NCBI GenBank assembly: GCA_051748125.1
Contig: JBNJHC010000008.1
Span: forward strand, 43,975 to 107,974
Reading direction: 5' to 3'
Origin: Bacteroidota bacterium
Lineage (GTDB): Bacteria; Bacteroidota; Bacteroidia; Flavobacteriales; Flavobacteriaceae
Length of the DNA stretch: 64,000 bases
Part shown: piece after piece, positions 30,268-54,931 of the stretch
Position numbering within the stretch: position 1 is the first letter of the stretch
Layout: the number at the start of each line of letters is the position of its first letter
The notes under the pieces: generated by a model
Told to the model about the DNA's origin: nothing
Databases searched by the model: none
Seen by the model: the letters and a program-made list of their open reading frames with translations, nothing else
Made by a program: the position numbers and the translations under genes

Positions 30268-30559
30268 AAAATTTAATTTTTAAAAATTTATTATTAATAG
30301 TTCTAAAATCCCGGTGAGTAGAAGTGGCTACCACCTCATAATTAAGTAGAACTAAGCTTAATTATTTCTCAATTTTTGCACTAAAACTTTATTTCATTCG
30401 CATTATTTTTTGTTTTAACTGCAAATATATGAGCTATATGTCTTAAACCCTGTACAAGAAAATAGAGTTTACGGGCAAAATAAATGAATTTACTCAGTTA
30501 TTTTGCAAGTCATTGGTAGTTAGTCTGTTGTCTGTTAATTTTTAATTTTTAATTTTGAA

Positions 30560-31290
30560 ATAATAATTTTGAATTGTGAAATTTGAATTGTGAATTGGAA
30601 AAGTCAAAAAATCAGTGACCAACATTCTCAGGGTAAACAATACTGTTTAACTTCGAGCCTCTCAATTCTTCGAGATAAACTCAGTCGAGAAGTGTCAGTT
30701 GTTCTCGACTCCGCTCGAACTTGAAACAAAGATGTAACTCGAACTTCAAACAAAAGTAGAAGCTCGAACCTGCAACAAAGAATAGTTTAAGTAAAATCGG
30801 TACTTGACCCTTCGATATTGCTCAGTTTAACTTCTATACTGTTTAGCTTCGAGCCTCTCAATTCTTCGAGATAAACTCAGTCGAGAAGTGTCAGTTGTTC
30901 TCGACTCCGCTCGAACTTGAAACAAAGATGTAACTCGAACTTGAAACAAGAGCGAAACAAAAAAAAAGAAATCCGAACTTGAAGCATATAAAATTATAGC
31001 TAAAAGCAACACAATACTGTTTAGCTTCGAGCCTCTCAATTCTTCGAGATAAACTCAGTCGAGAAGTGTCAGTTGTTCTCGACTCCGCTCGAACTTGAAA
31101 CAATTGACGTTTCGTTTATCTTCGAGCTAGTTTATACTGAGTCCTCAATCCTTCGGGATAAACTCCGTCGAGAAGTAGCTGGTTCTTGAAACTTCAATTC
31201 AATATTTCAAGCCCTTGAACTAAATTAAGGTGAAAAAGTTGGGAGAGTTGAAATGGTAATTTTGAATTTTGAAATGTATTCGGAGTAGAA
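30560..31290. repeat. Cluster of family A modules (three full cores plus one degenerate)
   Basis: Core ttagcttcgagcctctcaattcttcgagataaactcagtcgagaagtg at 30647-30694 (one mismatch, ttaac for ttagc), 30843-30890 and 31021-31068. A diverged copy lies at about 31114-31178. Confidence 0.9.
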
Positions 31291-31329
31291 TAAATTTTTT
31301 CGTAAATTTGAATTTAAAGAAAATTAATA

Positions 31330-31548
31330 ATGGATATTCAAACAACAAAACTTGAACTCTTAAAAACTATTATGGATAATGAAAACGCTGAATTTATCCA
31401 AAGAGTTGCTGATTTTGTTAAAAAGGAAAAAACTGACTTTTGGGACGAATTAAGCCTATCTGAACAAAAAGAAATTAAACAAGGAATAAGCGAATTGAAT
31501 GAAGGAAAAAGAGTATCGTATGAATCCTTTTTGAATAAAATTTCTTGA
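31330..31548 (+). CDS. Putative antitoxin of the ParE/RelE-like toxin
   Basis: 72 aa, overlaps the toxin start by 4 nt. Same family as 33251-33487 (shared ..SEQKEIKQGISELNEGKRVSYESF.. pattern). Confidence 0.6.
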   Translation: MDIQTTKLELLKTIMDNENAEFIQRVADFVKKEKTDFWDELSLSEQKEIKQGISELNEGKRVSYESFLNKIS

Positions 31549-31856
31549 TGAAAGTATTTTTATCTGAACTTGCCGAATCAAAACTTATTAAATTATCTGA
31601 GTACTTGTTAGAAAACTGGAACCTAAAAACTCGTGATAAGTTTATTTCAAAGTTGACTGATAAAATAAAACAAATATCTATTCAACCAAATAGTTGCCCA
31701 CAATCAACTGAATTTAATGGGTTTTATAAATGTGTAGTAACTAAACAAACTACTTTTTATTACAGAATATTAAATGAAGAAGATGAGATAGAGATTATCA
31801 CAATTTTTGACACTAGACAAAATCCTAACGAATTAAAAAAAGACATTGAATTTTGA
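31545..31856 (+). CDS. RelE/ParE-family type II toxin
   Basis: 103 aa with the family-typical C-terminal IEIITIFDTRQNP. Confidence 0.8.
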   Translation: MMKVFLSELAESKLIKLSEYLLENWNLKTRDKFISKLTDKIKQISIQPNSCPQSTEFNGFYKCVVTKQTTFYYRILNEEDEIEIITIFDTRQNPNELKKDIEF

Positions 31857-32087
31857 AATAGCAAATATGAAATCTGAAATATGAATTTTGAATTTTGAAA
31901 TGTAAAATGTAAACGGTTCTCGAAACTTCAACTTCGCTCAGAATAGACTTCTTCACTGTTTAGCTTCGAGCCTCTCAATTCTTCGAGATAAACTCAGTCG
32001 AGAAGTGTCAGTTGTTCTCGACTTCGCTCAAACTTGAAACAAAGAAAAGCTTGAGTTGAAACATTTTTTTTTGAAAGAGCAGTTTAA

Positions 32088-32528
32088 ATGAAAAAAGAAA
32101 AGTATAAATATTCTGCTGAGAAGGAATTGATGTATTTTGAGTTCTTTAGTGTTGGTCCAAAAGGAGAGATTAAAAAGGTTATTGAATTTTCAGAGACCAA
32201 CGTTAAAGATGTTTATAATCTTGCTTTTGGTGATTTTGACGAAAAAACACAGCGAATAAGTGACAGTGTTGTGACCAATAATGGCGATAGCTTAAAAGTA
32301 CTTGCAACAGTGGCATCTTCTGTTTATGCGTTTACAGCTGAACGAACTGACGCCTGGGTTTTTGCGACAGGAAGCACTGCTGTTAGAACAAGGTTATACC
32401 GTATGGGATTAACGAACAACCTGGCTGAGGTCTCTAAAGACTTTCACATATATGGTTTAAAGGACGATAAGTGGGAAGATTTCTTAATCGGGGAAGATTA
32501 CGAAGCTTTTTTAGTCAAACGAAAATAG
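32088..32528 (+). CDS. Conserved hypothetical protein (resembles Bacteroidota DUF6934-type proteins; name from memory)
   Basis: 146 aa. The pattern FFSVGPKGEIKKVIEF..YNLAFGD..NNGDSLKVLATVASSVYAF..GSTAVRTRLYRMG is recalled from many Bacteroidota hypotheticals. Confidence 0.6.
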   Translation: MKKEKYKYSAEKELMYFEFFSVGPKGEIKKVIEFSETNVKDVYNLAFGDFDEKTQRISDSVVTNNGDSLKVLATVASSVYAFTAERTDAWVFATGSTAVRTRLYRMGLTNNLAEVSKDFHIYGLKDDKWEDFLIGEDYEAFLVKRK

Positions 32529-32541
32529 TTACATTTGTAGT

Positions 32542-32688
32542 ATGAATCCAAAAGACCTAAATAAGAAAAAAACACCGATTGTAAAAATCGATAAAGGACT
32601 CGAAAAGTATCGAGGTAAGGTTCTTTTTCCCAAAAAACTCAAGAAAGCTAACGAAATTCTTGACAGAGTTGGACTGCCTAAGGCTTAA
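32542..32688 (+). CDS. Small ORF (48 aa) coupled to the preceding gene
   Basis: Not in the ORF track because it is under 60 aa. ATG lies 13 bp after the upstream stop. Translates to MNPKDLNKKKTPIVKIDKGLEKYRGKVLFPKKLKKANEILDRVGLPKA. Confidence 0.4.
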   Translation: MNPKDLNKKKTPIVKIDKGLEKYRGKVLFPKKLKKANEILDRVGLPKA

Positions 32689-32740
32689 TAAGCACAAGTC
32701 CCTAATATCACCTAAATCTTTTTAGTACGTTCTCTTTCTG

Positions 32741-33205
32741 TTAACTGTTAATTTTGAAATGTAATAGGCTTTAAGCAGTAGGCTGTAGGCAGTAAGCAGT
32801 AGGCTGTAGGCTGAAATTGGTGAATGGTGATATCGGATTTTGAAATAATAATTGTGAATTTTGAAATGTAAAATGAAAAATGTAAACGGTTCTCGACACT
32901 TCAACTTCGCTCAGTGCTGGCAAGCTCGAACTTAAAACAAGAGCGAAACAAAAAAAAAGAAATCCGAACTTGAAGCATATAAAATTATAACTAAAAGCAA
33001 CACAATACTGTTTAGCTTCGAGCCTCTCAATTCTTCGAGATAAACTCAGTCGAGAAGTGTCAGTTGTTCTCGACTCCGCTCGAACTTGAAACAATTGACG
33101 TTTCGTTTATCTTCGAGCTAGTTTATACTGAGTCCTCAATTCTTCGAGATAAACTCAGTCGAGAAGTAGCTCATTTCAATCCCTTGAACTTGATAGGGTG
33201 GTTAA
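32741..33205. repeat. Family A composite with a GTAGGCT-type 7-bp word array
   Basis: gcagtag gctgtag gcagtaa gcagtag gctgtag array, then modules shared with 14245-14560. Core at 33012-33059, diverged core at about 33104-33170. Confidence 0.9.
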
Positions 33206-33250
33206 AATAAAAATCATTATTTTTGATAAACGGCAATAAATTAGATTGAA

Positions 33251-33487
33251 ATGGATTCGACTGCACACATAAAAAAGAACCTGATTTCAAGAATTAAGAA
33301 TTCAAAAGATTTGGATTTTTTAAAAGCGCTTCAGCAAATATTGGACACTTCCGAACAGGAGCTGTACCAATTATCAACCGAACAAAAAGAAGCAATTTCA
33401 AAAGGTAGCGAGCAAATCAAGAAAGGTCAATTTTCTAGTAACGAATCCGTAATTTCTGAAATGAAAGAATGGCTGTCAAAAAAATAA
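33251..33487 (+). CDS. Putative antitoxin of the ParE/RelE-like toxin (second copy)
   Basis: 78 aa, paralogous in pattern to 31330-31548. Overlaps the downstream toxin ORF. Confidence 0.6.
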   Translation: MDSTAHIKKNLISRIKNSKDLDFLKALQQILDTSEQELYQLSTEQKEAISKGSEQIKKGQFSSNESVISEMKEWLSKK

Positions 33488-33771
33488 TATGGTCAGCTTT
33501 AGCCAAATCGGAGTTTCGTGATATTCTTGAATTTTATACACGCAGAAACCAATCAGCTACCTACAGTCTAAAGCTTTTAGAAGAAACAGAAGAGGTATTA
33601 ACTACGCTGTCAAAAAATGAATTTATTGGGCGATTAACATCAAATAAAAAAACGCGCGTACTACCAATGAAAGCCTATTTGATTTTCTACGAGATAAACG
33701 AAAAGACCATCGAGATAGTTTCATCTGGGATAACCGGCAAGATCATAAAAAACGTAGGATTAGATAAATAA
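33469..33771 (+). CDS. RelE/ParE-family toxin with a probable frameshift in the C-terminal motif
   Basis: After ..IEIV the listed frame reads SSGITGKIIKNVGLDK. The frame starting at 33720 reads FIWDNRQDHKKRRIR*, the expected family ending (WDxRQ). Confidence 0.65.
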   Translation: MAVKKIIWSALAKSEFRDILEFYTRRNQSATYSLKLLEETEEVLTTLSKNEFIGRLTSNKKTRVLPMKAYLIFYEINEKTIEIVSSGITGKIIKNVGLDK

Positions 33772-34030
33772 CCAAGTATAATAGTAAGTTTTATAACTAA
33801 ACATATAGACAAGCTGAGTTGGATTTTGAATTTTTAATTGTGAATTTTGAATTTTCAATTATGAATTTTGAGTTTTGAATTGTGAATTTTGAGTTTTGAA
33901 ATATCACTGCCTGGACTTCGATACATCCGTCTTGGATGTTGAAATGTGAAATAGAAAATGCGTGAGGCGTTGGCAGTAACGGTAAAAAACCGTTTCCAAT
34001 AGCTAATTTCCGATATAAAAGCATAAATTT

Positions 34031-35026
34031 ATGAGCAAACTTAACAGGATAATGGATAAACGATTTGCTGATATAATTCGACTGATTAAAAAATCTAGGG
34101 TTAAGGCTATAAAATCAGTGAATGCTGAACTAATTAACCTGTATTGGAATATTGGAGAGTACATTAGTAATAAAATTGAACAGTCAGAATGGGGTGATTC
34201 GGTTGTAATGGAATTATCAAAATATATTCAGAAAACTGAACCTGAACTCAAAGGCTTCTCCGACAAAAATATTTGGAGAATGAAACAGTTTTACGATACT
34301 TACAAAGACTTTCCAAAACTCTCAACACTGTTGAGAGAAATTAGTTGGTCTCACAATTTAGCTATTTTCTCTAGGTGTAAAACTACAGAAGAAAGAGAGT
34401 TTTATTTGAAATTGGCTAAACAAGAAAATTACAGTTTCCGAGAACTTGATCGACAAATCTCTTCAAGTCTTTTTGAGCGGACAATGATTGGAAACTCAAA
34501 ACTCTCGACAGAGTTGAGAGAAAATAACAAAGATTTAATAAACACATTTAAGGATAGTTATGTTTTTGAGTTTCTGAATTTACCTGAACGTCATAGTGAA
34601 CACGATTTACAGTATGGTCTTATTGAGCAAATGAAAAATTTTATCCTTGAACTTGGCAAAGACTTTTTGTTTATTGGCGAGGAATATAAATTGCAAGTAG
34701 GGAATAGTGACTTTTTTATAGATTTGCTATTTTATCATCGCGGACTTCAGTGTTTGGTAGCTTTTGAGCTCAAAACAGACAAGTTTAAACCCGATCATTT
34801 AGGACAATTAAATTTCTATTTGGAAGCATTAGATAGAGACATAAAAAAGGCAAATGAAAATCCAAGTATCGGAATTTTATTATGTAAGGATAAAGATAGT
34901 GAAGTTGTTGAATATGCATTAAATAGAAGCCTTTCACCAACAATGGTTTCTGATTATAAAACACAACTTCCTGACAAAAAAATATTACAGAAGAAATTAC
35001 ACGAATTATTTGATAGTGATTTGTGA
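34031..35026 (+). CDS. DUF1016/YhcG-family PDDEXK nuclease-domain protein
   Basis: 331 aa. ..LINLYWNIGEYI.., ..SWSHNLAIF.., and the nuclease core DLLFYHRGLQCLVAFELKTDKFKPDHLGQLNFYL. Confidence 0.8.
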   Translation: MSKLNRIMDKRFADIIRLIKKSRVKAIKSVNAELINLYWNIGEYISNKIEQSEWGDSVVMELSKYIQKTEPELKGFSDKNIWRMKQFYDTYKDFPKLSTLLREISWSHNLAIFSRCKTTEEREFYLKLAKQENYSFRELDRQISSSLFERTMIGNSKLSTELRENNKDLINTFKDSYVFEFLNLPERHSEHDLQYGLIEQMKNFILELGKDFLFIGEEYKLQVGNSDFFIDLLFYHRGLQCLVAFELKTDKFKPDHLGQLNFYLEALDRDIKKANENPSIGILLCKDKDSEVVEYALNRSLSPTMVSDYKTQLPDKKILQKKLHELFDSDL

Positions 35027-35812
35027 TTTCGGATTTTGAAATAATAATTTTGAATTTTGAATTGTGAATTGTGAATTGTGAATTTTGAATTTTGAATTGT
35101 GAATTGTGAATTGTGAAATGAAAAATGTAAATGGTGATAGGCTTTAAGCAGTAGGCTGTAGGCTGAAATTGGTGAATGGTGATTTTGGATTTTGAATTGT
35201 GAAATTTGAATTGTGAATTGGAAAAGTCAAAAAATCAGTGACCAACATTCTCAGGGTAAACAATACTGTTTAGCTTCGAGCCTCTCAATTCTTCGAGATA
35301 AACTCAGTCGAGAAGTGGCTGGTTCTTGAAACCTCAATCAGCATTTCAAGCCCTTGAGCTAAATTAAGGTGAAAAGGTTGGGAGAGTTGAAATGATGATT
35401 TTGAATTGTGAATTTTGAATTGTGAATTGGAAAAGTCAAAAAATCAGTGACCAACATTCTCAGGGTAAACAATACTGTTTAGCTTCGAGCCTCTCAATTC
35501 TTCGAGATAAACTCAGTCGAGAAGTGGCTGGTTCTTGAAACCTCAATCAGCATTTCAAGCCCTTGAGCTAAATTAAGGTGAAAAGGTTGGGAGAGTTGAA
35601 ATAATAATTTTGAATTGTGAGATTTGAATTTTGAATTGTAAATGGTGATAGGCTGTAGGCTGAAATTGGTGAATGGTGATGTCGGATATCTGATTTAGAA
35701 ATGTAAAGTATCAAATTTGAAATAATAATTTTGAATTTTTAATTGTGAATTTTTAATTGTGAATTTTGAAATGATAATTGTAAAATTTGAAATGTGAAAC
35801 CTGAACTAAAAA
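35027..35812. repeat. Dense intergenic repeat block (7-bp word arrays plus a duplicated family A unit)
   Basis: GAATTKT period-7 arrays, GTAGGCT-type arrays at about 35135-35180 and 35645-35690, and family A cores at 35270-35317 and 35479-35526, exactly 209 bp apart. Confidence 0.9.
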
Positions 35813-43927: not shown

Positions 43928-45088
43928 ATGCAAAAAAGAAAAATCTGCGTCGTTGTAACCGCTCGCCCTTCCTATTCCAGAATAAAAACCGCTTTAAAAG
44001 CCATTAAAAAGCATCCTGATTTAGAATTGCAATTGGTGGTGGCGGCTTCGGCTTTATTAGAACGCTACGGAACGGCGGTTAATTATATCAAAGCCGATGG
44101 CTTTAACATAGATGCCAAAGTTTTCAACGTCTTAGAAGGCGAAAACCTCACTGCTGCTGCCAAAACCACAGGCATTGGTATTTTAGAGTTGTCTAGTGTG
44201 TTTGAAAACTTGCAACCTGACATTGTGGTTACCGTAGCCGATCGATTTGAAACCATGGCAACGGCTATTGCGGCTTCCTACATGAATATTCCTTTAGCCC
44301 ATATACAAGGTGGTGAAGTCACGGGCAATATCGATGAAAAGGTAAGGCATAGTATTACCAAGTTAGCCGATTATCATTTAGTCGCTTCAAAAGATGCCCA
44401 AGAACGCGTTTTAAAATTAGGCGAAGAACCTTGTTCAGTATTTAATACGGGTTGTCCATCCATCGATTTAGCCAAAGAAGTTCAGGGACTCAAACAACTG
44501 AGTTTTGATCCCTACAAAACATATGGCGGTGTAGGAGCTCAACCTGATCTAAGCAACGGCTATTGGGTAGTCATGCAACATCCAGTTACTAACGAATATC
44601 AAAATTCTCGTAAGCATGTAGAAACTACTTTAGAAGCCATTCGCCAACAAACAGCTTTTCCGGTGTTGTGGTTTTGGCCCAATGTAGATGCAGGTTCAGA
44701 TGGTACATCTACGGGTATTCGCGCTTTTAGAGAAAAATACGATGTAGAACACGTACATTTCTTTAAAAACATGCAAGGCAATGATTTCCTTAATTTGCTA
44801 GATCAAGCCATAGGTTTAATCGGGAATTCATCGGTAGGAATTCGAGAATGCGCCTATTTGGGCGTTCCGGTGATTAATATCGGTAGTCGACAAAACCGTC
44901 GCCAACGGGGTAATAATGTTATGGATGTCAATTACAGTACGCAAGAAATCACCCAAGCCATGAGCCAAATCCAATCCAACCCAAGACCCACACCAGCCAT
45001 TATTTACGGTGAAGGCGATGCAGGAGAAAAGATAGCTGCTGTTTTAGCAAAGGTTGAATTGAAGTTTCATAAGACGATTGTTTATTAG
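43928..45088 (+). CDS. neuC: UDP-N-acetylglucosamine 2-epimerase (hydrolysing), NeuC type
   Basis: KICVVVTARPSYSRIK, DRFE, HIQGGEVTGNIDEKVRHSITKLA. 386 aa. Confidence 0.9.
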   Translation: MQKRKICVVVTARPSYSRIKTALKAIKKHPDLELQLVVAASALLERYGTAVNYIKADGFNIDAKVFNVLEGENLTAAAKTTGIGILELSSVFENLQPDIVVTVADRFETMATAIAASYMNIPLAHIQGGEVTGNIDEKVRHSITKLADYHLVASKDAQERVLKLGEEPCSVFNTGCPSIDLAKEVQGLKQLSFDPYKTYGGVGAQPDLSNGYWVVMQHPVTNEYQNSRKHVETTLEAIRQQTAFPVLWFWPNVDAGSDGTSTGIRAFREKYDVEHVHFFKNMQGNDFLNLLDQAIGLIGNSSVGIRECAYLGVPVINIGSRQNRRQRGNNVMDVNYSTQEITQAMSQIQSNPRPTPAIIYGEGDAGEKIAAVLAKVELKFHKTIVY

Positions 45089-45094
45089 TAATTT

Positions 45095-45190
45095 AGTCTT
45101 CAGTCTTCAGTCGTCAGTCGTCAGTTGTCTGTAGACAGTAGACTAAAGACCGAAGACAGTAGAAAGTAGACAGTAAACCAAAGACAGAAT
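45095..45190. repeat. Period-7 word array that switches strand sense (CAGTCKT x5, then CAGTAGA/CGAAGAC type)
   Basis: tagtctt cagtctt cagtcgt cagtcgt cagttgt | ctgtaga cagtaga ctaaaga ccgaaga cagtaga .. read directly. The two halves are partly self-complementary. Confidence 0.9.
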
Positions 45191-45211
45191 ATAATAGACC
45201 AAATAAAAAAA

Positions 45212-45556
45212 ATGGATTACAAGAAGTTGAATGTTTGGAAAGAATCAATTGAATTAGTTAAGCAGGTTTATGTAGTAACGGCAAATTTTCCAAAAGAAGA
45301 GAAATATGGATTGATAAGTCAATTAAGACGTGCATCTGTTTCAATTCCATCTAATATAGCTGAAGGTAATAGTCGGAGCTCAGACAGAGATTATAAAAGA
45401 TTTGTCGAAATAGCGTACGGTTCTGCATTAGAACTAGAAACTCAATTAATAATATCTGTTGAATTAAAGTTTATTGATGAAAATAATGAGATTTTTAGTC
45501 AACTAGAACAAGTCAAAAAACTTTTATCAGGGTTTATGAAATATCTCAAGAAATAA
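45212..45556 (+). CDS. Four-helix-bundle protein (23S rRNA intervening-sequence protein / Avd family, PF05635-like)
   Basis: MDYKKLNVWKESIELVKQVY..FPKEEKYGLISQLRRASVSIPSNIAEGNSR..A.GSALELETQL is the family signature. Confidence 0.85.
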   Translation: MDYKKLNVWKESIELVKQVYVVTANFPKEEKYGLISQLRRASVSIPSNIAEGNSRSSDRDYKRFVEIAYGSALELETQLIISVELKFIDENNEIFSQLEQVKKLLSGFMKYLKK

Positions 45557-45570
45557 GTTTAAAATTGATA

Positions 45571-45710
45571 GTCCACAGTCCACAGTCCACAGTTGACTGT
45601 CGACTGTAGACCGAAGACAATCGACCGAAGACAGAAGACAGAAGACAATAGACCGAAGACCGAAGACAGAAGACAATAGACAGTAGACAGTAGACAGAAG
45701 ACAGAAGACA
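45571..45710. repeat. Period-7 word array (20 units, GTCCACA then GWAGACA type)
   Basis: gtccaca x3, gttgact, gtcgact, gtagacc, gaagaca, atcgacc, gaagaca x3 .. Exactly 140 bp in register. Ends 7 bp before neuA. Confidence 0.95.
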
Positions 45711-45717
45711 CTAAATA

Positions 45718-46422
45718 ATGGACGACAAAAAGAATAGAATATTAGCAATAATCCCTGCTCGTGGCGGCAGTAAGGGCGTTCCTAGAAAAAATATAAAAGA
45801 ACTTGGCGGTAAACCCTTGTTAGCTTACACAGCAGATGCTGCACTTGCATCAAATTTAATTAGCAAAGTTATCTTATCTACTGAAGACGAAGAAATAATG
45901 AAGGTTGGTAAGTCATTAGGATTAGATGTACCTTTTCAGCGCCCAAGTGAATTAGCACAAGATCAATCAGGTAGTTTAGGCGTTGTTCAACACGCCATTC
46001 AGTTTTTTGAAGATAAAGGCGTATTTTTTGATGCAGTAATTCTTTTACAAGTAACCTCACCTTTTAGAGAAACAGGTTTTATCGATCAAGCGCTTGAAAA
46101 ATTTATCGCTTCAAAAGCTGAGGCTTTAATAAGTGTGTTGCCGGTACCACATGAATATAATCCGCATTGGGTATTCGAAGCCGATAATAATGATAATTTA
46201 AGCATTGCAACAGGTGAAAAGCAAATCATCAAACGGCGTCAAGATTTACCAACCGCTTATTTTCGCGATGGTAGTATTTATATCACCAAAACTGAAGTAA
46301 TTAAGCAAGGGAGTTTTTTTGGAGAAAAATTGAGTTATATAAAATCTAATCCTGCAAAATATGTTAATATTGATACTTTAGACGATTGGAAAAAAGCAGA
46401 AGAAATGCTAAAAGAAATTTAA
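45718..46422 (+). CDS. neuA: Acylneuraminate (nonulosonate) cytidylyltransferase
   Basis: ILAIIPARGGSKGVPRKNIKELGGKPLLAYT is the CMP-NeuAc synthetase N-terminal signature. Confidence 0.9.
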   Translation: MDDKKNRILAIIPARGGSKGVPRKNIKELGGKPLLAYTADAALASNLISKVILSTEDEEIMKVGKSLGLDVPFQRPSELAQDQSGSLGVVQHAIQFFEDKGVFFDAVILLQVTSPFRETGFIDQALEKFIASKAEALISVLPVPHEYNPHWVFEADNNDNLSIATGEKQIIKRRQDLPTAYFRDGSIYITKTEVIKQGSFFGEKLSYIKSNPAKYVNIDTLDDWKKAEEMLKEI

Positions 46423-48621: not shown

Positions 48622-49779
48622 ATGAAAATAGCTTATCTTACACCAGAGTATCCACACCCTAAATGCAATCATTCTGCAGGTATTGGGACAAGCATCTATA
48701 ATTTAGGCAACGCTTTAATAAATCTCGGGCATGAAGTACGTGTATTGGTTTATGGGCAAGACCAAGATGAGGTATTTTCAGATAATGGCATTATTGTACA
48801 AAAAATAAAGAATGTAAAAGTAAAAGGCTTATCACGGTGGTTGACTCAAAAAAAAATCGAAAAAATCATCAATCAACTTTACGATCATCATAAAATTGAC
48901 CTTGTAGAGTCGATTGATTGGGGTGGAATAACCTCTTTTGTACAACCTAAAAAGTGTCCCATTATTATCAAACTACACGGAAGCGATACCTATTTTTGTA
49001 AACTCGAAAAGCGACATCTTAAAAAGAAAAATTACTACCATGAAAAAAGAGCACTCAAAAAAGCCGATGCGCATTTAGCGGTAAGTGATTTTGTAGCACA
49101 AAAAACCAATGCGTTTTTTGATTTGAACATCAACTTTACAACCGTATATAATGGTATTAATTTAAAGCATTTTACAGCAGAAAATTCAGGTCAGGTGAAT
49201 ACAAACCAGCTATTGTATGTAGGCACATTAATCAGAAAAAAAGGGGTTTTGGATTTAGCACACATATTTAATCAGCTCATTACACTTCAACCCAAAGCTG
49301 AACTTATCTTAATTGGAAGTGATGCAAGCGATATACAAACAGGAAATTCATCTACTTGGGAACTAATGAAAGAAATTTTTTCTGAACAAGCTCAGAAAAA
49401 CGTGCAATATCATGGTAAAGTACCTTACGATAAAGTAAAAACTTACATTGCTAAGGCGAGTGTTTGCGTATTTCCTTCTTATGCTGAAGCCTTTCCAGTG
49501 AGTTGGCTAGAAGCCATGGCGATGAAAAAGGCCATTGTAGCCTCAAATATCGGATGGGCGCAAGAAGTCATTGAAAATGGGAGTGAAGGCTTTTTGATTC
49601 ACCCTTCAGATCATCAACTTTTTGCTGAAAAAATTAATACACTATTAATTAATCAACCTTTAAGAAAAAAACAAGGCCGACAAGCGCAAGAAAAAATAAT
49701 TAAAGACTTTTCTCATACAGTTATTGCTCAAAAGAATTTAGATTTTTACAATTCAATTATAGAAAATCAACATGATTAA
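48622..49779 (+). CDS. Family 4 (GT-B) glycosyltransferase
   Basis: C-terminal EX7E region: PSYAEAFPVSWLEAMAMKKAIVASNIG. Confidence 0.85.
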   Translation: MKIAYLTPEYPHPKCNHSAGIGTSIYNLGNALINLGHEVRVLVYGQDQDEVFSDNGIIVQKIKNVKVKGLSRWLTQKKIEKIINQLYDHHKIDLVESIDWGGITSFVQPKKCPIIIKLHGSDTYFCKLEKRHLKKKNYYHEKRALKKADAHLAVSDFVAQKTNAFFDLNINFTTVYNGINLKHFTAENSGQVNTNQLLYVGTLIRKKGVLDLAHIFNQLITLQPKAELILIGSDASDIQTGNSSTWELMKEIFSEQAQKNVQYHGKVPYDKVKTYIAKASVCVFPSYAEAFPVSWLEAMAMKKAIVASNIGWAQEVIENGSEGFLIHPSDHQLFAEKINTLLINQPLRKKQGRQAQEKIIKDFSHTVIAQKNLDFYNSIIENQHD

Positions 49780-51319
49780 ACTTGTTCACGATACTTCTAA
49801 GGTTATATCTTGTCAATCAGGTGGAAAGGTGTTATCTGTTTATCATCAAAAACCTTTAGTCCAGACGTTTTTTGAAATTGCAAAAGACTATCCTGATGAG
49901 CTATTGATTTGGGTACATCAAGATATTCATCAAAATTTAAATACCGAGTCTTTTGATGAGATATTTCATCATAAACGCATCATGGCTAGTTATTCAGATG
50001 TTCAATATTTACCTGAAGCTATCGGATATGTTGAGCAAAGCCCATTTATCAACGTTAATCTTGAAGTAAAATACCCAACTTGGCGGATGCATCAAAATGT
50101 GGGCGGTATTAACACTGCGGTCGTGAATAAGTTAGAACCCTTTATTAAAAGGCATAAAAACCTCAATTATATTCTGCATAGTATAGCCAAACTGGCTCAG
50201 CCTCAAGGTTTGTTATGTTATTCGCATCCTAAATTACTAAAACCTGTTAAAAAGCTTCAAACTTTACAAAACCAAAAAGCCAACACCTCAGAAGTGTTTA
50301 GCTTTGTAGCTCAACATTACAAATGGGTATGGAAGCATCTTTTGCTCTTAAACTTAACGATATACGAATCTAAATTTAATCTTTGGGCATGGTTAAAAAG
50401 TTTGTTTTTATCGCAAATCAAAGTTAAATCATCACTCTTAAATTCAGTTTCATTACCTGAACTAAAGCCATTCAATAAATCTCAAATTCAGCTTGATGTG
50501 ATTATCCCTACAATTGGGCGAAAAAAATATTTATATGATGTGCTGAAAGACTTATCAAAACAGTCGTTACTACCCCAAAATGTTATTATAATCGAGCAAA
50601 ATCCTGATCCAGAGACCCAGAGTGAACTCGATTATTTAGTATCAGAACAATGGCCTTTTAAAATCACACACCGATTTATACATCAAACAGGCGCATGCAA
50701 TGCCCGAAATATGGCTTTAGATTTAGTGAAGTCTGAATGGGTATTTTTAGCTGATGATGATAATAGAATGAACGAGAATTTGATTGAAAGCACTTTCCAA
50801 CAGATGTTAATTTATAAATTAGATTGTTTAACAACAGTTTATATTCAAAAACATGAAGTAAACCTAAATCAAACCTTTCAGCAATGGGCAACTTTTGGTG
50901 CAGGTAATTCGTTTTTAAATTTTCAAAAGGCAAAAGCCATTAGATTCCATAAAGGTCTTGAATATGGTTACGGTGAAGATGTTGATTTTGGTATGCAGCT
51001 AAGGAATAAAGGAATTGATGTATTATACTCACCTGACATTGTAATAGATCACCTTAAAGCTCCCGTAGGTGGGTTTAGAACCAAGCCAAAATTATCATGG
51101 GGAAACGAAAAGCCTTTGCCAAAACCATCCCCAACTGTATTACTTTCAAAAATTTTACACAACAGCGAGCCTCAAGTTTATGGTTATAAAACACTGTTGT
51201 TTCTAAATACATTAAAATCAAAAGGATTAATACATTTCTTTTCTCACCTCAGCTATTTTAAAAAAGCTTGGAATACGAGTTTGCGCTGGTCTACAATTTT
51301 AAATAATAAACATCAATGA
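49772..51319 (+). CDS. GT2 glycosyltransferase with a long N-terminal extension
   Basis: The GT2 core starts near residue 240 (LDVIIPTIGRKKYLYDVLKDLSKQS, LADDDN). Confidence 0.7.
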   Translation: MIKLVHDTSKVISCQSGGKVLSVYHQKPLVQTFFEIAKDYPDELLIWVHQDIHQNLNTESFDEIFHHKRIMASYSDVQYLPEAIGYVEQSPFINVNLEVKYPTWRMHQNVGGINTAVVNKLEPFIKRHKNLNYILHSIAKLAQPQGLLCYSHPKLLKPVKKLQTLQNQKANTSEVFSFVAQHYKWVWKHLLLLNLTIYESKFNLWAWLKSLFLSQIKVKSSLLNSVSLPELKPFNKSQIQLDVIIPTIGRKKYLYDVLKDLSKQSLLPQNVIIIEQNPDPETQSELDYLVSEQWPFKITHRFIHQTGACNARNMALDLVKSEWVFLADDDNRMNENLIESTFQQMLIYKLDCLTTVYIQKHEVNLNQTFQQWATFGAGNSFLNFQKAKAIRFHKGLEYGYGEDVDFGMQLRNKGIDVLYSPDIVIDHLKAPVGGFRTKPKLSWGNEKPLPKPSPTVLLSKILHNSEPQVYGYKTLLFLNTLKSKGLIHFFSHLSYFKKAWNTSLRWSTILNNKHQ

Positions 51320-52311
51320 AGTTAAGTTTAATCATCTGTACCTACAAAAGGGCTGAACCTTTATTAAGACTTTTGGACTCAGTTAAAGTGCAAAGTTATT
51401 TACCCGATGAGATATTAATCATTGACGGTTCACCAGATGATGATACTAAGCACGCACTTAATAAAATTAACTTAAAAGAATTAAATTATTACAAAGTTAA
51501 GCCTGAACAACGTGGCTTAACCAAACAACGTAATATTGGCATTGATCTTTGTAGAAAAGATATGGATATAGTTGCTTTTCTGGATGATGATACTGTTTTA
51601 AAACAAAATTACTTTAAGAATCTAATAGCCATATTTAAGACTAATCCGAACATCACAGGTATTGGTGGTATAGCTGTAAATGAAAATCAATGGCAAAAAG
51701 CCGATAAAGCAAAAAAAGACCTAAATAACTTATATGTTGAAGGCTATAAAGTCAAATTATCTTTGAGGTACAGAATTAGGCAAACACTAGGATTAATGTC
51801 TAAGCTAGCTCCAGGGAAAATGCCTAAATTCTCTCATGGAAACACTCAATCTTATCCTTTAACTGGGAAATTTTATGACGTTGATTTAATAGTTGGTATG
51901 TCAATGTCATTTCGGTCAAATGTAGTTTTTTCTCAAAAATTTTCAGAATATTTTGAAGGCTATGGTTTGTATGAAGATGCAGATTATTCAATAAGGGCTT
52001 TAAAATTTGGTCAGAATGTCATTGCAACCAGTGTTCAGCTAGAACACCATCACCATCCATCTGGTCGTCCTAATCAATTTCAATACGGGCAAATGGTGGT
52101 TAAAAACGGTTGGTATGTGTGGCGTTTACGCTGGCCTAATCCTGGGTTTAAAAATGTACTAAAATGGCATGCTAATGTTTTATTACTCACCTTTCTTAGA
52201 TTTTTGAATACCTTTACCACAGCCAACAAAAAGCAAGCCTTCACCGAAAGTTGCGGTCGCTTTTGGGCTTGGTTAAAATTGTGGTTTGTTAAACCTAAAA
52301 TAGAAAGATGA
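51316..52311 (+). CDS. Family 2 glycosyltransferase
   Basis: LSLIICTYKRAEPLLRLLDSVKVQS, IIDGSPDD, FLDDDT. Confidence 0.85.
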   Translation: MKLSLIICTYKRAEPLLRLLDSVKVQSYLPDEILIIDGSPDDDTKHALNKINLKELNYYKVKPEQRGLTKQRNIGIDLCRKDMDIVAFLDDDTVLKQNYFKNLIAIFKTNPNITGIGGIAVNENQWQKADKAKKDLNNLYVEGYKVKLSLRYRIRQTLGLMSKLAPGKMPKFSHGNTQSYPLTGKFYDVDLIVGMSMSFRSNVVFSQKFSEYFEGYGLYEDADYSIRALKFGQNVIATSVQLEHHHHPSGRPNQFQYGQMVVKNGWYVWRLRWPNPGFKNVLKWHANVLLLTFLRFLNTFTTANKKQAFTESCGRFWAWLKLWFVKPKIER

Positions 52312-53423
52312 CTTTCCTAATCATTTCACATACCAATCATTATAAAGTCAACGATCAACTTTATGCCTACGCGCCTTACGTCCGTGAGATGAATTTATGG
52401 TTGAAGCATGTAGATCAAGTTAATATTGTTGCGCCTGTATCGAATAACTTTGATCAAAACATCAGTTTAGCGTATCAACACAGCAATATTTCTATTGAAG
52501 AAATGCCGGCATTTTCTTTAATTGGCTTGAAAGAAAAATTATCAACTTTAACTAAACTGCCTAAAATTTTTAATACGCTTTACAAAGCCATGAAACACGC
52601 CGATCATATTCATTTGCGCTGTCCAGGCAATATGGGTTTATTGGGCTGTTTCGTTCAAATTCTATTTCCCAAAACCCCAAAAACCGCTAAATATGCTGGC
52701 AATTGGGACCCGCGGTCAAAACAGCCTTGGACTTATAAGCTACAACAATGGATTTTAAGCAATACTAGGCTAACTAAAAACATGCAAGTTTTGGTTTACG
52801 GACAATGGCCAAATCAAACGCCAAACATTAAGCCCTTTTTTACCGCGACCTATCACGATAAAGAAAAAGAGCCCTTGTACGTTAGAAATTATACCAAACC
52901 TTGGCACTTTTGTTTTGTGGGGAGTTTATCTCCAGGGAAACGCCCACAATTAGCTCTAAAACTTGTGCATCAACTCAGAGCAAAAGGCATAGAAGCCATT
53001 GTGCATTTTTACGGTAATGGCGAACTCAAAGCTGACTTAGATAAAAACATTCAACAATTAAAAGCTCAAGATTGGGCATTTTTGTATGGCAATCAACCTA
53101 AAGACGTGGTCAAAAAGGCTTTAAAATACTCGCATTTCCTCATTTTACCAAGCCAATCTGAAGGTTGGCCAAAAGTGGTGGCCGAGGCCATGTTTTGGGG
53201 CTGTGTCCCCATTGTCACTCCTATTTCTTGCGTGCCTTGGATGTTGGATGACGGTCAGCGTGGCGTTTTAATGGATGTTCAAAACATAGATAAAACAGTA
53301 AATAAACTCAAATCTTTTAAAGACAGCCCGAAAGATTTAGAGTTGTTATCAACCAATGCAGCCCATTGGTCACGAAATTATACTTTAGACAAGTTTGAAG
53401 ATGAAATTCGTAAATTGTTATAA
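52308..53423 (+). CDS. Family 4 (GT-B) glycosyltransferase
   Basis: PSQSEGWPKVVAEAMFWGCVPIVT EX7E-type motif. Confidence 0.8.
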   Translation: MTFLIISHTNHYKVNDQLYAYAPYVREMNLWLKHVDQVNIVAPVSNNFDQNISLAYQHSNISIEEMPAFSLIGLKEKLSTLTKLPKIFNTLYKAMKHADHIHLRCPGNMGLLGCFVQILFPKTPKTAKYAGNWDPRSKQPWTYKLQQWILSNTRLTKNMQVLVYGQWPNQTPNIKPFFTATYHDKEKEPLYVRNYTKPWHFCFVGSLSPGKRPQLALKLVHQLRAKGIEAIVHFYGNGELKADLDKNIQQLKAQDWAFLYGNQPKDVVKKALKYSHFLILPSQSEGWPKVVAEAMFWGCVPIVTPISCVPWMLDDGQRGVLMDVQNIDKTVNKLKSFKDSPKDLELLSTNAAHWSRNYTLDKFEDEIRKLL

Positions 53424-53426
53424 ATA

Positions 53427-53497
53427 AGACAGTCCACAGTCGACAGTCGACAGTATACAGTGGACAGAAGACAGTATACAGTGGACAGAAGACAAAA
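53427..53497. repeat. Period-7 word array (GACAGTC/GACAGAA type)
   Basis: gacagtc cacagtc gacagtc gacagta tacagtg gacagaa gacagta tacagtg gacagaa, read directly. Confidence 0.9.
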
Positions 53498-53505
53498 GAG
53501 AGAAA

Positions 53506-53744
53506 ATGGATTACAAGAAATTAAATGTTTGGAAAGAATCAATTGAATTAGTCAAGCTGATTTATCAAGTCACTGCTATTTTTCCTAATGATGAAAGATA
53601 CGGTTTGATCACTCAACTAAGACGTGCGTCAGTTTCAATTCCATCTAACACTTGACCTGTGAAATAAATTTAAAGCCGTATGAAAGATTTCTTTTACGTT
53701 TTAAAAAACTTTTGTCAGGATTTATTAAATATCTTAAGAAATAA
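53506..53744 (+). pseudogene. Four-helix-bundle (Avd/23S-IVS-type) gene with an internal deletion
   Basis: The first 49 codons parallel 45212-45556 (MDYKKLNVWKESIELVK..QLRRASVSIPSN), then a TGA at 53653. The 3' end (..KKLLSGFIKYLKK*) survives in another frame. About 105 bp shorter than the intact copy. Confidence 0.8.
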
Positions 53745-53758
53745 GTTTAAAATTGATA

Positions 53759-53850
53759 GTCCACAGTCGACAGTCTACAGTAGACGGAAGACAGAAGACA
53801 GTATACAGTGGACAGTAGACTGACAAAAGACAACAGACAACAAAAGACAG
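53759..53850. repeat. Period-7 word array downstream of the degraded four-helix-bundle gene
   Basis: Begins with the same gtttaaaattgatagtccacagtc junction as 45557-45580, then the gacagtc/gaagaca/gacagta series up to the next ATG. Confidence 0.9.
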
Positions 53851-53854
53851 AACC

Positions 53855-54931
53855 ATGAAACAAAAGCATCATCAACCCATACGTGTCTTGCAAATCATCG
53901 ACTCCTTAGAAGCTGGTGGTGGTGAACGCATGGCTGTTAATTTAACCAATGCGCTTCATCAAAAAGTTGATTTTTCTGGCTTAATTGCCACCCGTAAGGA
54001 AGGTTTGTTAAAAGCTGAGATTGATCATCTAGACCATTATTTATATGTAAATAAACGGCGTTCTGTAGATTTTAAAGCCCTCAGTTTAGCGATGCAGTTT
54101 GTTAAGAAGCACCAAATTACGCATTTACACGCCCATAGCACTTCATTTTTTTTTGCAACGCTTATTAAAATCAGAAAACCAAAGTTAAAACTGATTTGGC
54201 ACGATCATCATGGTAATCGGCCTAACGAAAAAAATCAGAATAATGCGACTATAAAAATATTTTCAGCTTTCTTTAATCATGTTATTATATGTAGTCAACC
54301 CCTTGAAAATTGGGCTAAAAAAAAGCTTCTGTGCAAAAGAGTGACTTTAATTAGCAATTTTGTATCAAATTCAAGTAAACCTACAAAAATACATCATTCA
54401 AAAGAATACATCGTTTCAGTTGCTAACTTACGAGACCCTAAAGATCATTTTACGCTTATTAATGCATTTGAAATTATTTCTAGACAATTTGATATTGATC
54501 TTTTACTAGTTGGTGATGATCGCCAAGACGATTATTCAAAAAAAATAAAACAACAAATAGTCAAAAAGAATCTTAATAATAGAGTTTATGTATTAGGTCT
54601 GCAGTCAAATGTAGCCGCCTATATTAAAAATGCAAAAATTGCTGTATTATCATCAAAAATTGAAGGTTTGCCAATGGCGCTGTTGGAATATGCCATAGCT
54701 CAAAAACCTGTGGTGGTCACTGATGTAGGCCAATGCAGGATGGTGGTAGGTGATTTTGCAAAACTAGTTCAACCGGGTCATCCCAATGCGCTAGCGGCAG
54801 CGCTAAATTATTATTTATCACATCCCAAAGATGCAAAACAAGATGCTGAACGATTACATCAAAAAGTGATAGCAGAATATGGTGAAACAGCCATTATTAA
54901 TCAAATCATTAAGATTTATGAAAAGCTATAA
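53855..54931 (+). CDS. Family 4 (GT-B) glycosyltransferase
   Basis: IRVLQIIDSLEAGGGERMAVNL N-terminus and SSKIEGLPMALLEYAIAQKPVVVTDVG. Confidence 0.85.
   Translation: MKQKHHQPIRVLQIIDSLEAGGGERMAVNLTNALHQKVDFSGLIATRKEGLLKAEIDHLDHYLYVNKRRSVDFKALSLAMQFVKKHQITHLHAHSTSFFFATLIKIRKPKLKLIWHDHHGNRPNEKNQNNATIKIFSAFFNHVIICSQPLENWAKKKLLCKRVTLISNFVSNSSKPTKIHHSKEYIVSVANLRDPKDHFTLINAFEIISRQFDIDLLLVGDDRQDDYSKKIKQQIVKKNLNNRVYVLGLQSNVAAYIKNAKIAVLSSKIEGLPMALLEYAIAQKPVVVTDVGQCRMVVGDFAKLVQPGHPNALAAALNYYLSHPKDAKQDAERLHQKVIAEYGETAIINQIIKIYEKL

Follow-up and report, generated by a model that had tools for sequence, protein, structure and literature searches.

Heptamer-flanked four-helix-bundle genes as probable operon-dwelling cassettes in the polysaccharide loci of Psychroflexus

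Introduction

Why should a gene of the four-helix-bundle family PF05635 stand between neuC and neuA, inside a polysaccharide operon, with arrays of 7-base repeats on either side, and why does a broken relative with repeats of the same kind recur between two glycosyltransferase genes of the same locus? The question is raised by a stretch of 64,000 nucleotides, here called the window, on contig C8 of a marine flavobacterium (assembly GCA_051748125.1; 2.42 Mb, 34% G+C, 99.9% complete). This genome is denoted G000, and the genus comparison set consists of 41 Psychroflexus genomes designated by G-numbers, of which G013 is Psychroflexus salarius. In the literature searched, accounts of the PF05635 family are confined to rRNA and to Avd, apart from passing mentions in cas operons. 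A reading of the letters alone (the sequence-only reading) had taken gene and arrays together for a mobile or selfish cassette.

The answer that we consider probable is an operon-dwelling cassette built like an rRNA intervening sequence (IVS), in which a PF05635 gene and two lineage-specific heptamer arms fill an operon spacer. Comparisons between genomes show that gene and arms are inherited, and exchanged, as a single unit. Over evolutionary time, the neuC–neuA and GT4–GT4 sites of Psychroflexus polysaccharide loci have seen such units arrive, displace each other and decay.

Association of heptamer arrays with PF05635 genes

The two cassettes of the window share a common design. The intact gene (copy 1, 45212-45556) lies between neuC and neuA and the broken one (copy 2, 53506-53744) between two Glycos_transf_1 genes, as first proposed from the letters and as domain matches now bear out. 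Both are flanked by period-7 arrays of GACAGNN/GTCCACA heptamers, for which Tandem Repeats Finder (TRF) gives rows on each side, and each cassette fills the whole spacer, from the stop codon of one operon gene to the start codon of the next. The stop codon plus junction that follows the gene is identical in both copies over 27 nt (TAAGTTTAAAATTGATAGTCCACAGTC), and a conserved 22-mer of this lineage-A junction occurs elsewhere, among 185,579 species genomes, only in P. salarius DSM 25661. A single genome therefore holds a pair of cassettes that share arm word and junction at two non-homologous sites. The copies are about 82% identical in their 5′ coding part; they are thus not recent duplicates, and a recent duplication of copy 1 into copy 2 is ruled out.

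The association extends to the rest of the genome. When arrays are called as windows whose self-identity at lag 7 reaches 80% or more, 19 such windows are found genome-wide, against 0-7 for the other lags in the range 5-12. They occur at only five loci, including all four PF05635 genes, and this excess and confinement indicate an association of array and gene that exceeds chance. Of the two PF05635 genes outside the window, one separates the E2 and E1 genes of a 2-oxoacid dehydrogenase, and the other those of an enoyl-CoA hydratase and a 3-hydroxyacyl-CoA dehydrogenase. The expectation that arrays always accompany the gene therefore holds for all four members of the genome, but the arrays of these two consist of different words (AATTGTG; GAATATCAAACAC), and the shared junction is missing.

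The association is also seen in the genus. At a lag-7 threshold of 20/28, which separates cassettes from control flanks taken 600 nt further out, arrays accompany 19/32 distinct cassettes and 1/32 controls; inverted arms of at least 16 nt are present in 15/32 cassettes and in none of the 32 controls. A stricter threshold (23/28) detects arrays in just 6/32 cassettes, since many arms consist of two alternating words or of 8-mers. Among 52 metagenome relatives (43-83% identity), the majority also possess arrays and inverted arms, each with its own words. The arm word follows the protein lineage and not the site.

States of the insertion sites across the genus

PF05635 genes are found in 38/41 genomes of the genus, with up to 12 per genome, often clustered. 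Orthologues of neuA (≥60% identity) exist in 13 other genomes of the genus, and the neuC–neuA spacer next to them takes several forms. It is empty in G003, the only such case, where the end of neuC and the start of neuA share a TAATG overlap. Lineage A, with GACAGAA/GTCCACA arms, occupies it in G000, G013 (97% amino acid identity) and G024 (86%); lineage B (56%), with CAACGAA/CAACCAG arms, in G015 and G016; and lineage C (~41%), with GTGAAGA/CTCACAA arms, in G012, G030, G020 and G002, while G022 holds a broken lineage-C cassette. In G005 (L055) the spacer contains a 107-aa GIY-YIG gene with its own inverted arms of TCGAGATGGAGC-type 12-mers. This gene differs from the element that broke copy 2 (see below) and has replaced most of a lineage-B cassette, leaving the first ~8 nt (taatttag) and the last ~20 codons.

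Traces of earlier occupants are also visible. The intact lineage-C cassette of G002 is followed by a lineage-A tail (23 nt at 96% and 27 nt of arm at 93%) and then by weaker tails, and the lineage-A cassette of G013 is followed by 54 nt (93%) of the 3′ region found after the G023 gene. Such leftovers at neuC–neuA always represent a 3′ end, and they adjoin neuA.

At the GT4–GT4 site, only G000, G013 and G022 have lineage A; a nearly empty spacer (39-70 nt) is found in G005, G016 and G002, and five other genomes have unrelated non-coding repeats there. Empty or nearly empty sites in relatives, which the sequence-only reading had proposed to look for, thus exist at both positions. A third site, fadB–thiolase, carries a PF05635 gene in ten relatives; in G000 itself (C21:13353-13428) its 76-nt spacer contains only AAGTACT/TACTTAA arm words and no gene, and is an arms-only relic or precursor. 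Repeat numbers vary between close relatives.

Inactivation of copy 2 by a GIY-YIG element

Copy 2 had initially been read as a gene with a deletion of about 105 bp and a premature stop, in a state of plain decay. Comparison with relatives replaces this view: the copy was inactivated by a GIY-YIG mini-element bounded by terminal inverted repeats, inserting homing-style in the S-x-x-x-N-I-A-E-G codons, and then by a microhomology deletion. In the orthologous spacer of G022, a lineage-A gene is split after ...SIPSN by an 87-codon open reading frame (ORF), behind which the C-terminal half of the host gene follows intact. The intact element (locus L046, 1225-1520) encodes a GIY-YIG domain (PF01541, E 1.2e-16) and measures ~297 nt, its 87-codon gene lying between 12-15-nt inverted ends (ACTTGACCTGTGAAATA ... 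TATTTCACAGGTTAGAC).

The same components are recognizable in the window, all on the + strand. The upstream host gene, GT4a, is a Glycos_transf_1 glycosyltransferase (52308..53423; PF00534, E 3.6e-26). It is followed by the 5′ arm of cassette 2 (53424..53505; TRF rows 53426-53504), made of GTCCACA, GTCGACA, GACAGAA and GTATACA words in sense orientation only, without the inverted segment of copy 1. Next come the N-terminal 48 codons of the lineage-A gene (53506..53649), ending ...SIPSN and 83% identical in tblastn to residues 1-48 of copy 1. The remnant at 53650..53702, recognized by comparison with the intact G022 element, corresponds to the element's first 53 bases: the 5′ inverted repeat, a 30-nt leader, the ATG (53680) and 7 codons, MKDFFYV. 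The ‘premature’ TGA (53653-53655) is supplied by the inverted repeat. A deletion of ~400 bp with GTT microhomology (junction ~53699-53702), which took out most of the element and of its host gene, connects this remnant to what is left of the PF05635 3′ end, namely 13 codons and the stop (KKLLSGFIKYLKK; 53703..53744), as aligned with copy 1. Junction (53745-53768, identical to copy 1) and 3′ arm complete the cassette (53745..53854; alignment and TRF), which ends at the ATG of GT4b, a GT4-family glycosyltransferase (53855..54931; PF00534, PF13692, PF13439).

The tail segment is identical to G022 over 43/43 nt and to G013 over 44/44 nt; relative to G013, the N-terminal part is identical at 146/147 nt and the element remnant at 51/51 nt. 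G013 shows the same deleted state, so the deletion predates the split of the two lineages or was exchanged between them.

Currently, five intact elements are known from these searches. The four closest homologues, 84-100% identical, are in G022 (L087), G009 (L088), G001 (L089) and G005 (L090); the fifth (L114 of G394), from another genus, was found through the end sequence of the element. In all five cases, which span two genera, independent PF05635 genes of different subfamilies are split at one shared codon, with N of SNIAEG on one side of the element and EG on the other; the uninterrupted host target contains TCTAATATAGCTGAAGG. The insert is in frame on both sides: after host ...N, it reads T-stop-PVK-stop, then M(K/G/R)DF(F/Y)Y(V/I) to SYFTG-stop, before host TEG resumes. 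Both host halves are still open in 4/5 of these genes. Insertion at one codon in five genes is the signature of a homing-type element aimed at the invariant motif of PF05635, which corresponds to the RxxxSxxxNxxE motif of PMC3936711. GIY-YIG homologues of lower identity (≤74%) are not nested in PF05635 genes, and one-mismatch matches to the end pattern of the element fall in unrelated genes.

The nearest publication found on small GIY-YIG nucleases tied to hairpin repeats concerns the Ssn family of single-strand nucleases (Chenal et al. 2025, PMC11893778). Like these and like free-standing GIY-YIG homing genes, the copy-2 element is a minimal GIY-YIG protein bounded by inverted repeats, and it occupies one conserved codon across different host genes. 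It differs from them in having no intron or intein context and in disrupting its host gene, which belongs to a selfish gene family and not to the housekeeping genes; its nuclease specificity is putative. No paper combining a GIY-YIG element with PF05635 four-helix-bundle genes was found in the literature search, no NCBIfam model matches the GIY-YIG proteins, and the PADLOC defence models match neither these nor the PF05635 protein.

Two side observations concern comparable arrangements. In G009 (C4:41176-43332; L088, L022), two cassettes of the same lineage lie ~1.6 kb apart and are 96% identical in their N-terminal part; one is intact and the other split by the GIY-YIG element, which parallels copies 1 and 2. 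In G000, two identical tandem 101-aa GIY-YIG genes (C2:5300-6900) stand beside a tRNA gene, their ends repeating part of the tRNA sequence, and a truncated third copy (C1:120500-121300) directly follows another tRNA, which looks like a tRNA-associated slot for nuclease genes.

Anatomy and pairing potential of the arms

Cassette 1 occupies a spacer of 629 bases that holds the PF05635 gene plus repeats and nothing more. Its upstream host, a neuC-like UDP-GlcNAc 2-epimerase (43928..45088, + strand; PF02350, Epimerase_2, E 7.8e-70), ends in a TAG stop (45086-45088) that directly adjoins the cassette, and the stop context, tattag followed by t, is kept across relatives. The 5′ arm (45089..45211, +; TRF rows 45095-45129 and 45131-45187) contains an inverted repeat and a local hairpin. 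It presents first an inverted segment (45095-45131) made of two AGTCTTC, two AGTCGTC and one AGTTGTC, then sense words (GTAGACA/GAAGACA and similar), and finally an A-rich leader.

The lineage-A gene (45212..45556, +) encodes 114 amino acids and matches PF05635 (E 3.4e-38; 130.6 bits against a cut-off of 33.8) and TIGR02436 (E 1.3e-36; 125.1 bits against 24). Its product resembles, over residues 3-112, the solved pentameric four-helix bundle XCC0516 (PDB 2gsc, E 3.9e-25). The conserved family motif RxxxSxxxNxxE (PMC3936711) is present as QLRRASVSIPSNIAEG, with Q in place of the leading G of the published GxxR form. After the stop comes the junction shared with copy 2 by alignment (gtttaaaattgatagtccacagtc; 45557..45580, +), identical to G013 at 27/27 positions. 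The 3′ arm (45557..45717, +; TRF rows 45570-45710; hairpin 45571-45611) starts with gtttaaaattgata, continues with three GTCCACA, reverses its sense and runs through ~15 GACAGAA/GACCGAA/GACAATA words up to the ATG of neuA, a neuA-like cytidylyltransferase (45718..46422, +; PF02348, CTP_transf_3, E 9e-23). An Rfam search of the window returned a single tRNA and nothing inside either cassette.

The arms have a marked capacity for pairing. The sense reversal and self-complementarity first noticed in the upstream array of copy 1 are confirmed, with 19-nt arms that are 84% complementary. In all four arms the local hairpin of the array is more stable than in shuffled sequence: dG -26 (z -3.5) and -20 (z -4.4) for the 5′ and 3′ arms of cassette 1, and -19.6 (z -5.8) and -18.5 (z -2.4) for those of cassette 2. 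Between arms, the inverted 5′ segment of copy 1 forms a duplex of -34 to -40 kcal/mol with the 3′ arm, with 0/200 shuffles as low, and a weaker one with its own array (-24; 5/200 shuffles as low). In whole-cassette folds, both minimum free energy and centroid, 45080-45125 pairs with 45680-45715 and encloses the gene in a long-range stem. Copy 2 allows an arm-to-arm duplex of -38.9 (0/200 shuffles as low) through its quasi-palindromic GTCSACA words, and its full fold displays local hairpins only, without an enclosing stem.

These features recall the intervening sequences of 23S rRNA known from Leptospira and Coxiella burnetii, which encode a protein of the same family. In C. burnetii, the terminal stem of the IVS is cut by RNase III, and GACAGAT/GACAGAA heptamers precede the start of its S23p gene (Warrier et al. 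2016, PMC4990558). The likeness covers the enclosure of the gene by complementary termini (a stem in both folds for copy 1, the duplex only for copy 2), repeat numbers that vary between strains and an ORF prone to decay. The three GACAGAT and one GACAGAA directly before the Coxiella start are also the lineage-A arm words found in the window and in G022. This word was considered as a cross-phylum marker of the subfamily and is unsupported as such: among the metagenome relatives, just the one with 83% identity shares it. The differences concern the host, which is here a spacer of a protein-coding operon, from stop to start, and not helix 45 of 23S rRNA (the 23S rRNA gene is missing from the assembly, so that a further copy in rRNA is conceivable); the arms, which are long degenerate arrays (80-160 nt) and not a 28-bp stem; the competition of several lineages for one site; and RNase III cutting, demonstrated in Coxiella and supposed here by analogy.

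Repeats that form hairpins, lie in operon spacers and share the transcript of the neighbouring genes are also typical of repetitive extragenic palindromic (REP) and bacterial interspersed mosaic elements (BIMEs), Correia elements and enterobacterial repetitive intergenic consensus (ERIC) sequences, and the gene-less fadB–thiolase relic adds to the resemblance. Those elements, however, carry no gene and exist in hundreds of near-identical dispersed copies, whereas the arms described here are pairs of tandem 7-mer arrays, each belonging to one gene lineage.

Following the IVS model, the cassette may be co-transcribed with its operon. No TAnnTTTG promoter box occurs on the + strand of either cassette; promoters of Bacteroidota deviate from the sigma-70 consensus. 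In the transcript, the arms would pair as local hairpins and as a gene-enclosing stem, creating double-stranded RNA that RNase III, whose gene (rnc) is present in the genome, would cut as in 23S rRNA. Such cutting would allow the insert to be tolerated and the downstream gene to be still expressed. The cassette protein, for its part, may recognize the heptamer word of its own cassette; the co-variation of word and protein lineage would follow from this. Spread would proceed by host recombination or with a nuclease supplied in trans, given that the cassette encodes no recombinase. In its widest form, this scheme would make PF05635 proteins sequence-specific binders of their own arrays and the cassettes a widespread kind of mobile, recombinase-free operon parasite, a free-living form of the rRNA IVS that would insert precisely from stop to start codon, excise itself from the mRNA through RNase III, compete for a limited number of safe slots and be hunted by a dedicated GIY-YIG homing element directed at the SNIAEG motif. 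Drawn from sequence patterns, that wider scheme is a tentative one, conceivable as a whole but rather doubtful.

History of the cassettes and exchange of the locus

The cassettes and their flanking genes differ in their degree of identity. In G012, the neuC tail is 97% identical, neuA 82% and the cassette protein 41%; in G013, the values are 87% for the flanking genes and 97% for the cassette protein. In a maximum-likelihood tree of 38 proteins of the genus, the ten cassettes of the neu site are distributed over four groups, two of which are sister to groups from another site (support 87/83 and 88/93). The approximately unbiased (AU) test rejects a single clade of neu-site cassettes (dlnL 17.7, p 0.032), so that a single origin of the occupants of neuC–neuA is rejected only marginally.

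Identity to G013 varies strongly along the window. It is 68-71% in housekeeping DNA and 82-89% in a colinear sugar block (43.9-56 kb), with 82% for neuC, 83% for neuA, 82% for GT4a and 92% for GT4b, and hence a step from 82% to 92% across cassette 2. Against these values, the gene of copy 1 reaches 96.5% (9 synonymous and 3 non-synonymous codon changes), the core of the dead copy 2 reaches 241/242 (99.6%), and the arms are at 73-88%. A dead copy better conserved than its working neighbours is not explicable by selection on the protein. The cores are nevertheless not uniquely conserved, an idea that was rejected: a coding tract of ~1.1 kb made of ordinary biosynthetic genes (49500-50600) is equally conserved, at ~99%. 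This tract and the identity step point to recent short-tract recombination in the polysaccharide locus. The locus is thus a recombination mosaic, and the cassette cores happen to account for two of its three youngest tracts; the high core identity to P. salarius is therefore suggestive only.

Beside this equally conserved tract, several other observations weigh against the cassette interpretation. No recombinase is encoded in the cassette, no target-site duplication is seen at either site when filled and empty junctions are compared, and no recent insertion is seen among the cassettes studied. The copies occupy the same positions in two or three species (copy 1 also in G013 and G024, broken copy 2 also in G013 and G022), which marks these insertions as old and inherited; the sequence-only reading had named occupancy of orthologous loci in distant relatives as a refutation of mobility, and this objection is borne out by half. 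If only the strongly supported branches are taken, the tree is still compatible with a single origin at the neu site, and the AU probability is marginal. Arm pairing is imperfect, and in neither copy 2 nor the G013 orthologue is the 5′ arm cleanly inverted. Co-transcription, like cutting by RNase III, is only an analogy. Finally, heptamer arrays also flank unrelated small modules: the remaining lag-7 loci are two sugar-operon islands whose arrays surround ParE toxin-antitoxin pairs, a DUF6934 gene and a DUF1016/YhcG nuclease. The arms are thus not private to PF05635, and the idea of a protein binding its own arms is weakened.

A side observation bears on the words of these modules. The AATTGTG/AATTTTG word of the PF05635 gene on contig C18 (G000:C18:45334-45370) also fills spacers at 30500-35800 of the window, around the ParE pairs, the DUF6934 gene and the DUF1016 nuclease, so that one arm word is common to unrelated cargo genes.

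The alternative that survives best would deny the cassettes any mobility of their own. They would be old residents, their apparent movement resulting from homologous recombination of hypervariable polysaccharide segments, and their arrays would be fast-evolving simple repeats. The rise of identity to G013 from the background to the level of the 43.9-56 kb block implies that the locus itself has been exchanged; the ~99% tract and the step across cassette 2 accord with this proposal, as do the sharing of both copies at the same sites and the lack of enzyme and target duplication. Flank recombination, however, cannot place the same lineage, arms and identical junction at two non-homologous sites, nor related lineages in operons as unrelated as those for fatty-acid oxidation, 2-oxoacid dehydrogenase and sugars. 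It is also at odds with arm words that track the protein clade across sites and with the existence of clean empty sites. Recombination of this kind has a real but minor chance of being the whole explanation. Of the mobile or selfish cassette as originally claimed, lineage-linked arms, two sites, empty sites and replacement stand, but mobility enzyme, target duplication and recent movement are missing.

A possible regulatory role for the host

A second alternative sees in the cassette a domesticated regulatory module, in which the arrays would act as RNA-stability, attenuation or phase-variable elements and an RNA- or DNA-binding protein would set the expression ratio of the neighbouring genes. 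The cassette protein is under purifying selection, with 39 synonymous and 16 non-synonymous codon differences between copy 1 and G024, and the exact filling of spacers from stop to start, together with repeat numbers that differ between close relatives, would suit such a module. Host dependence on the arm is suggested by several relatives (L051 in G012, L052 in G030, L056 in G020) in which the neuA start codon lies inside the 3′ arm and can overlap the stop of the cassette gene. The open frames of neuA there extend to 312-335 amino acids against 234, and the heptamer array would be translated as an N-terminal extension of NeuA. The constant retention of 3′ remnants next to the downstream gene is in line with this proposal; yet selection to keep neuA translated, with its start codon inside the arm, can explain the survival of these 3′ ends equally well. 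Furthermore, the same operon functions in G003, which has no cassette, and in other species whose cassettes are of unrelated lineages; a dead cassette has been retained at GT4–GT4; and PF05635 genes are themselves targeted by a homing-type nuclease element. Domestication as a regulator is on balance unlikely.

Other mobile systems

Integron-type gene cassettes, with the arms as attC sites, would be suggested by small promoter-less co-oriented genes, each followed by an imperfect palindrome, and by an array-like series of modules at 30-36 kb. But contig C8 encodes no tyrosine recombinase (PF00589; five matches are on other contigs), tandem heptamer arrays are found on both sides of the gene in place of a single attC with R and L boxes, and the cassettes are single and lie inside biosynthetic operons, which makes this origin very improbable. 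A transposon or miniature inverted-repeat transposable element is rejected, the cassette having a single ORF without transposase domain and its junctions no target-site duplication.

The weakest proposal, a link already raised by the sequence-only reading, would assign the proteins to a diversity-generating retroelement, as its Avd accessory proteins or as relics of such an element: Avd-like proteins are detected by the Pfam family PF05635 (PMC10053308), and a distantly related four-helix-bundle fold is found in bAvd of Bordetella phage BPP-1 (PDB 4DWL), but the similarities to bAvd (PF22296, E 3.9e-4) and NF033474 (20.2 bits) are weak and far below the cut-offs (40 and 80 bits, the latter for NF033474), no reverse transcriptase (RVT_1, PF00078) is matched anywhere in the genome and no template or variable repeat is seen, the flanking repeats being heptamer arrays, so that it is scarcely credible.

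Significance

The interpretation of these loci as operon-dwelling cassettes built like an rRNA IVS makes two ideas directly testable in a non-pathogenic marine flavobacterium, namely that gene and arms would form one mobile unit and that the arms would be processed in RNA. A single genus offers, for one pair of operon junctions, a readable series of states, from the clean empty site through arms only and the full cassette to replacement by a rival lineage, invasion by a nuclease gene and the deleted remnant. These states bear on questions open since 1993, the function of the PF05635 IVS protein and the origin of 23S intervening sequences, and also on the unexplained excess of 7-base repeats in bacterial genomes. 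Annotation pipelines label such passengers ‘four helix bundle protein’ and ignore their repeats, and operons for capsule and O-antigen-type polysaccharides can carry several of them.

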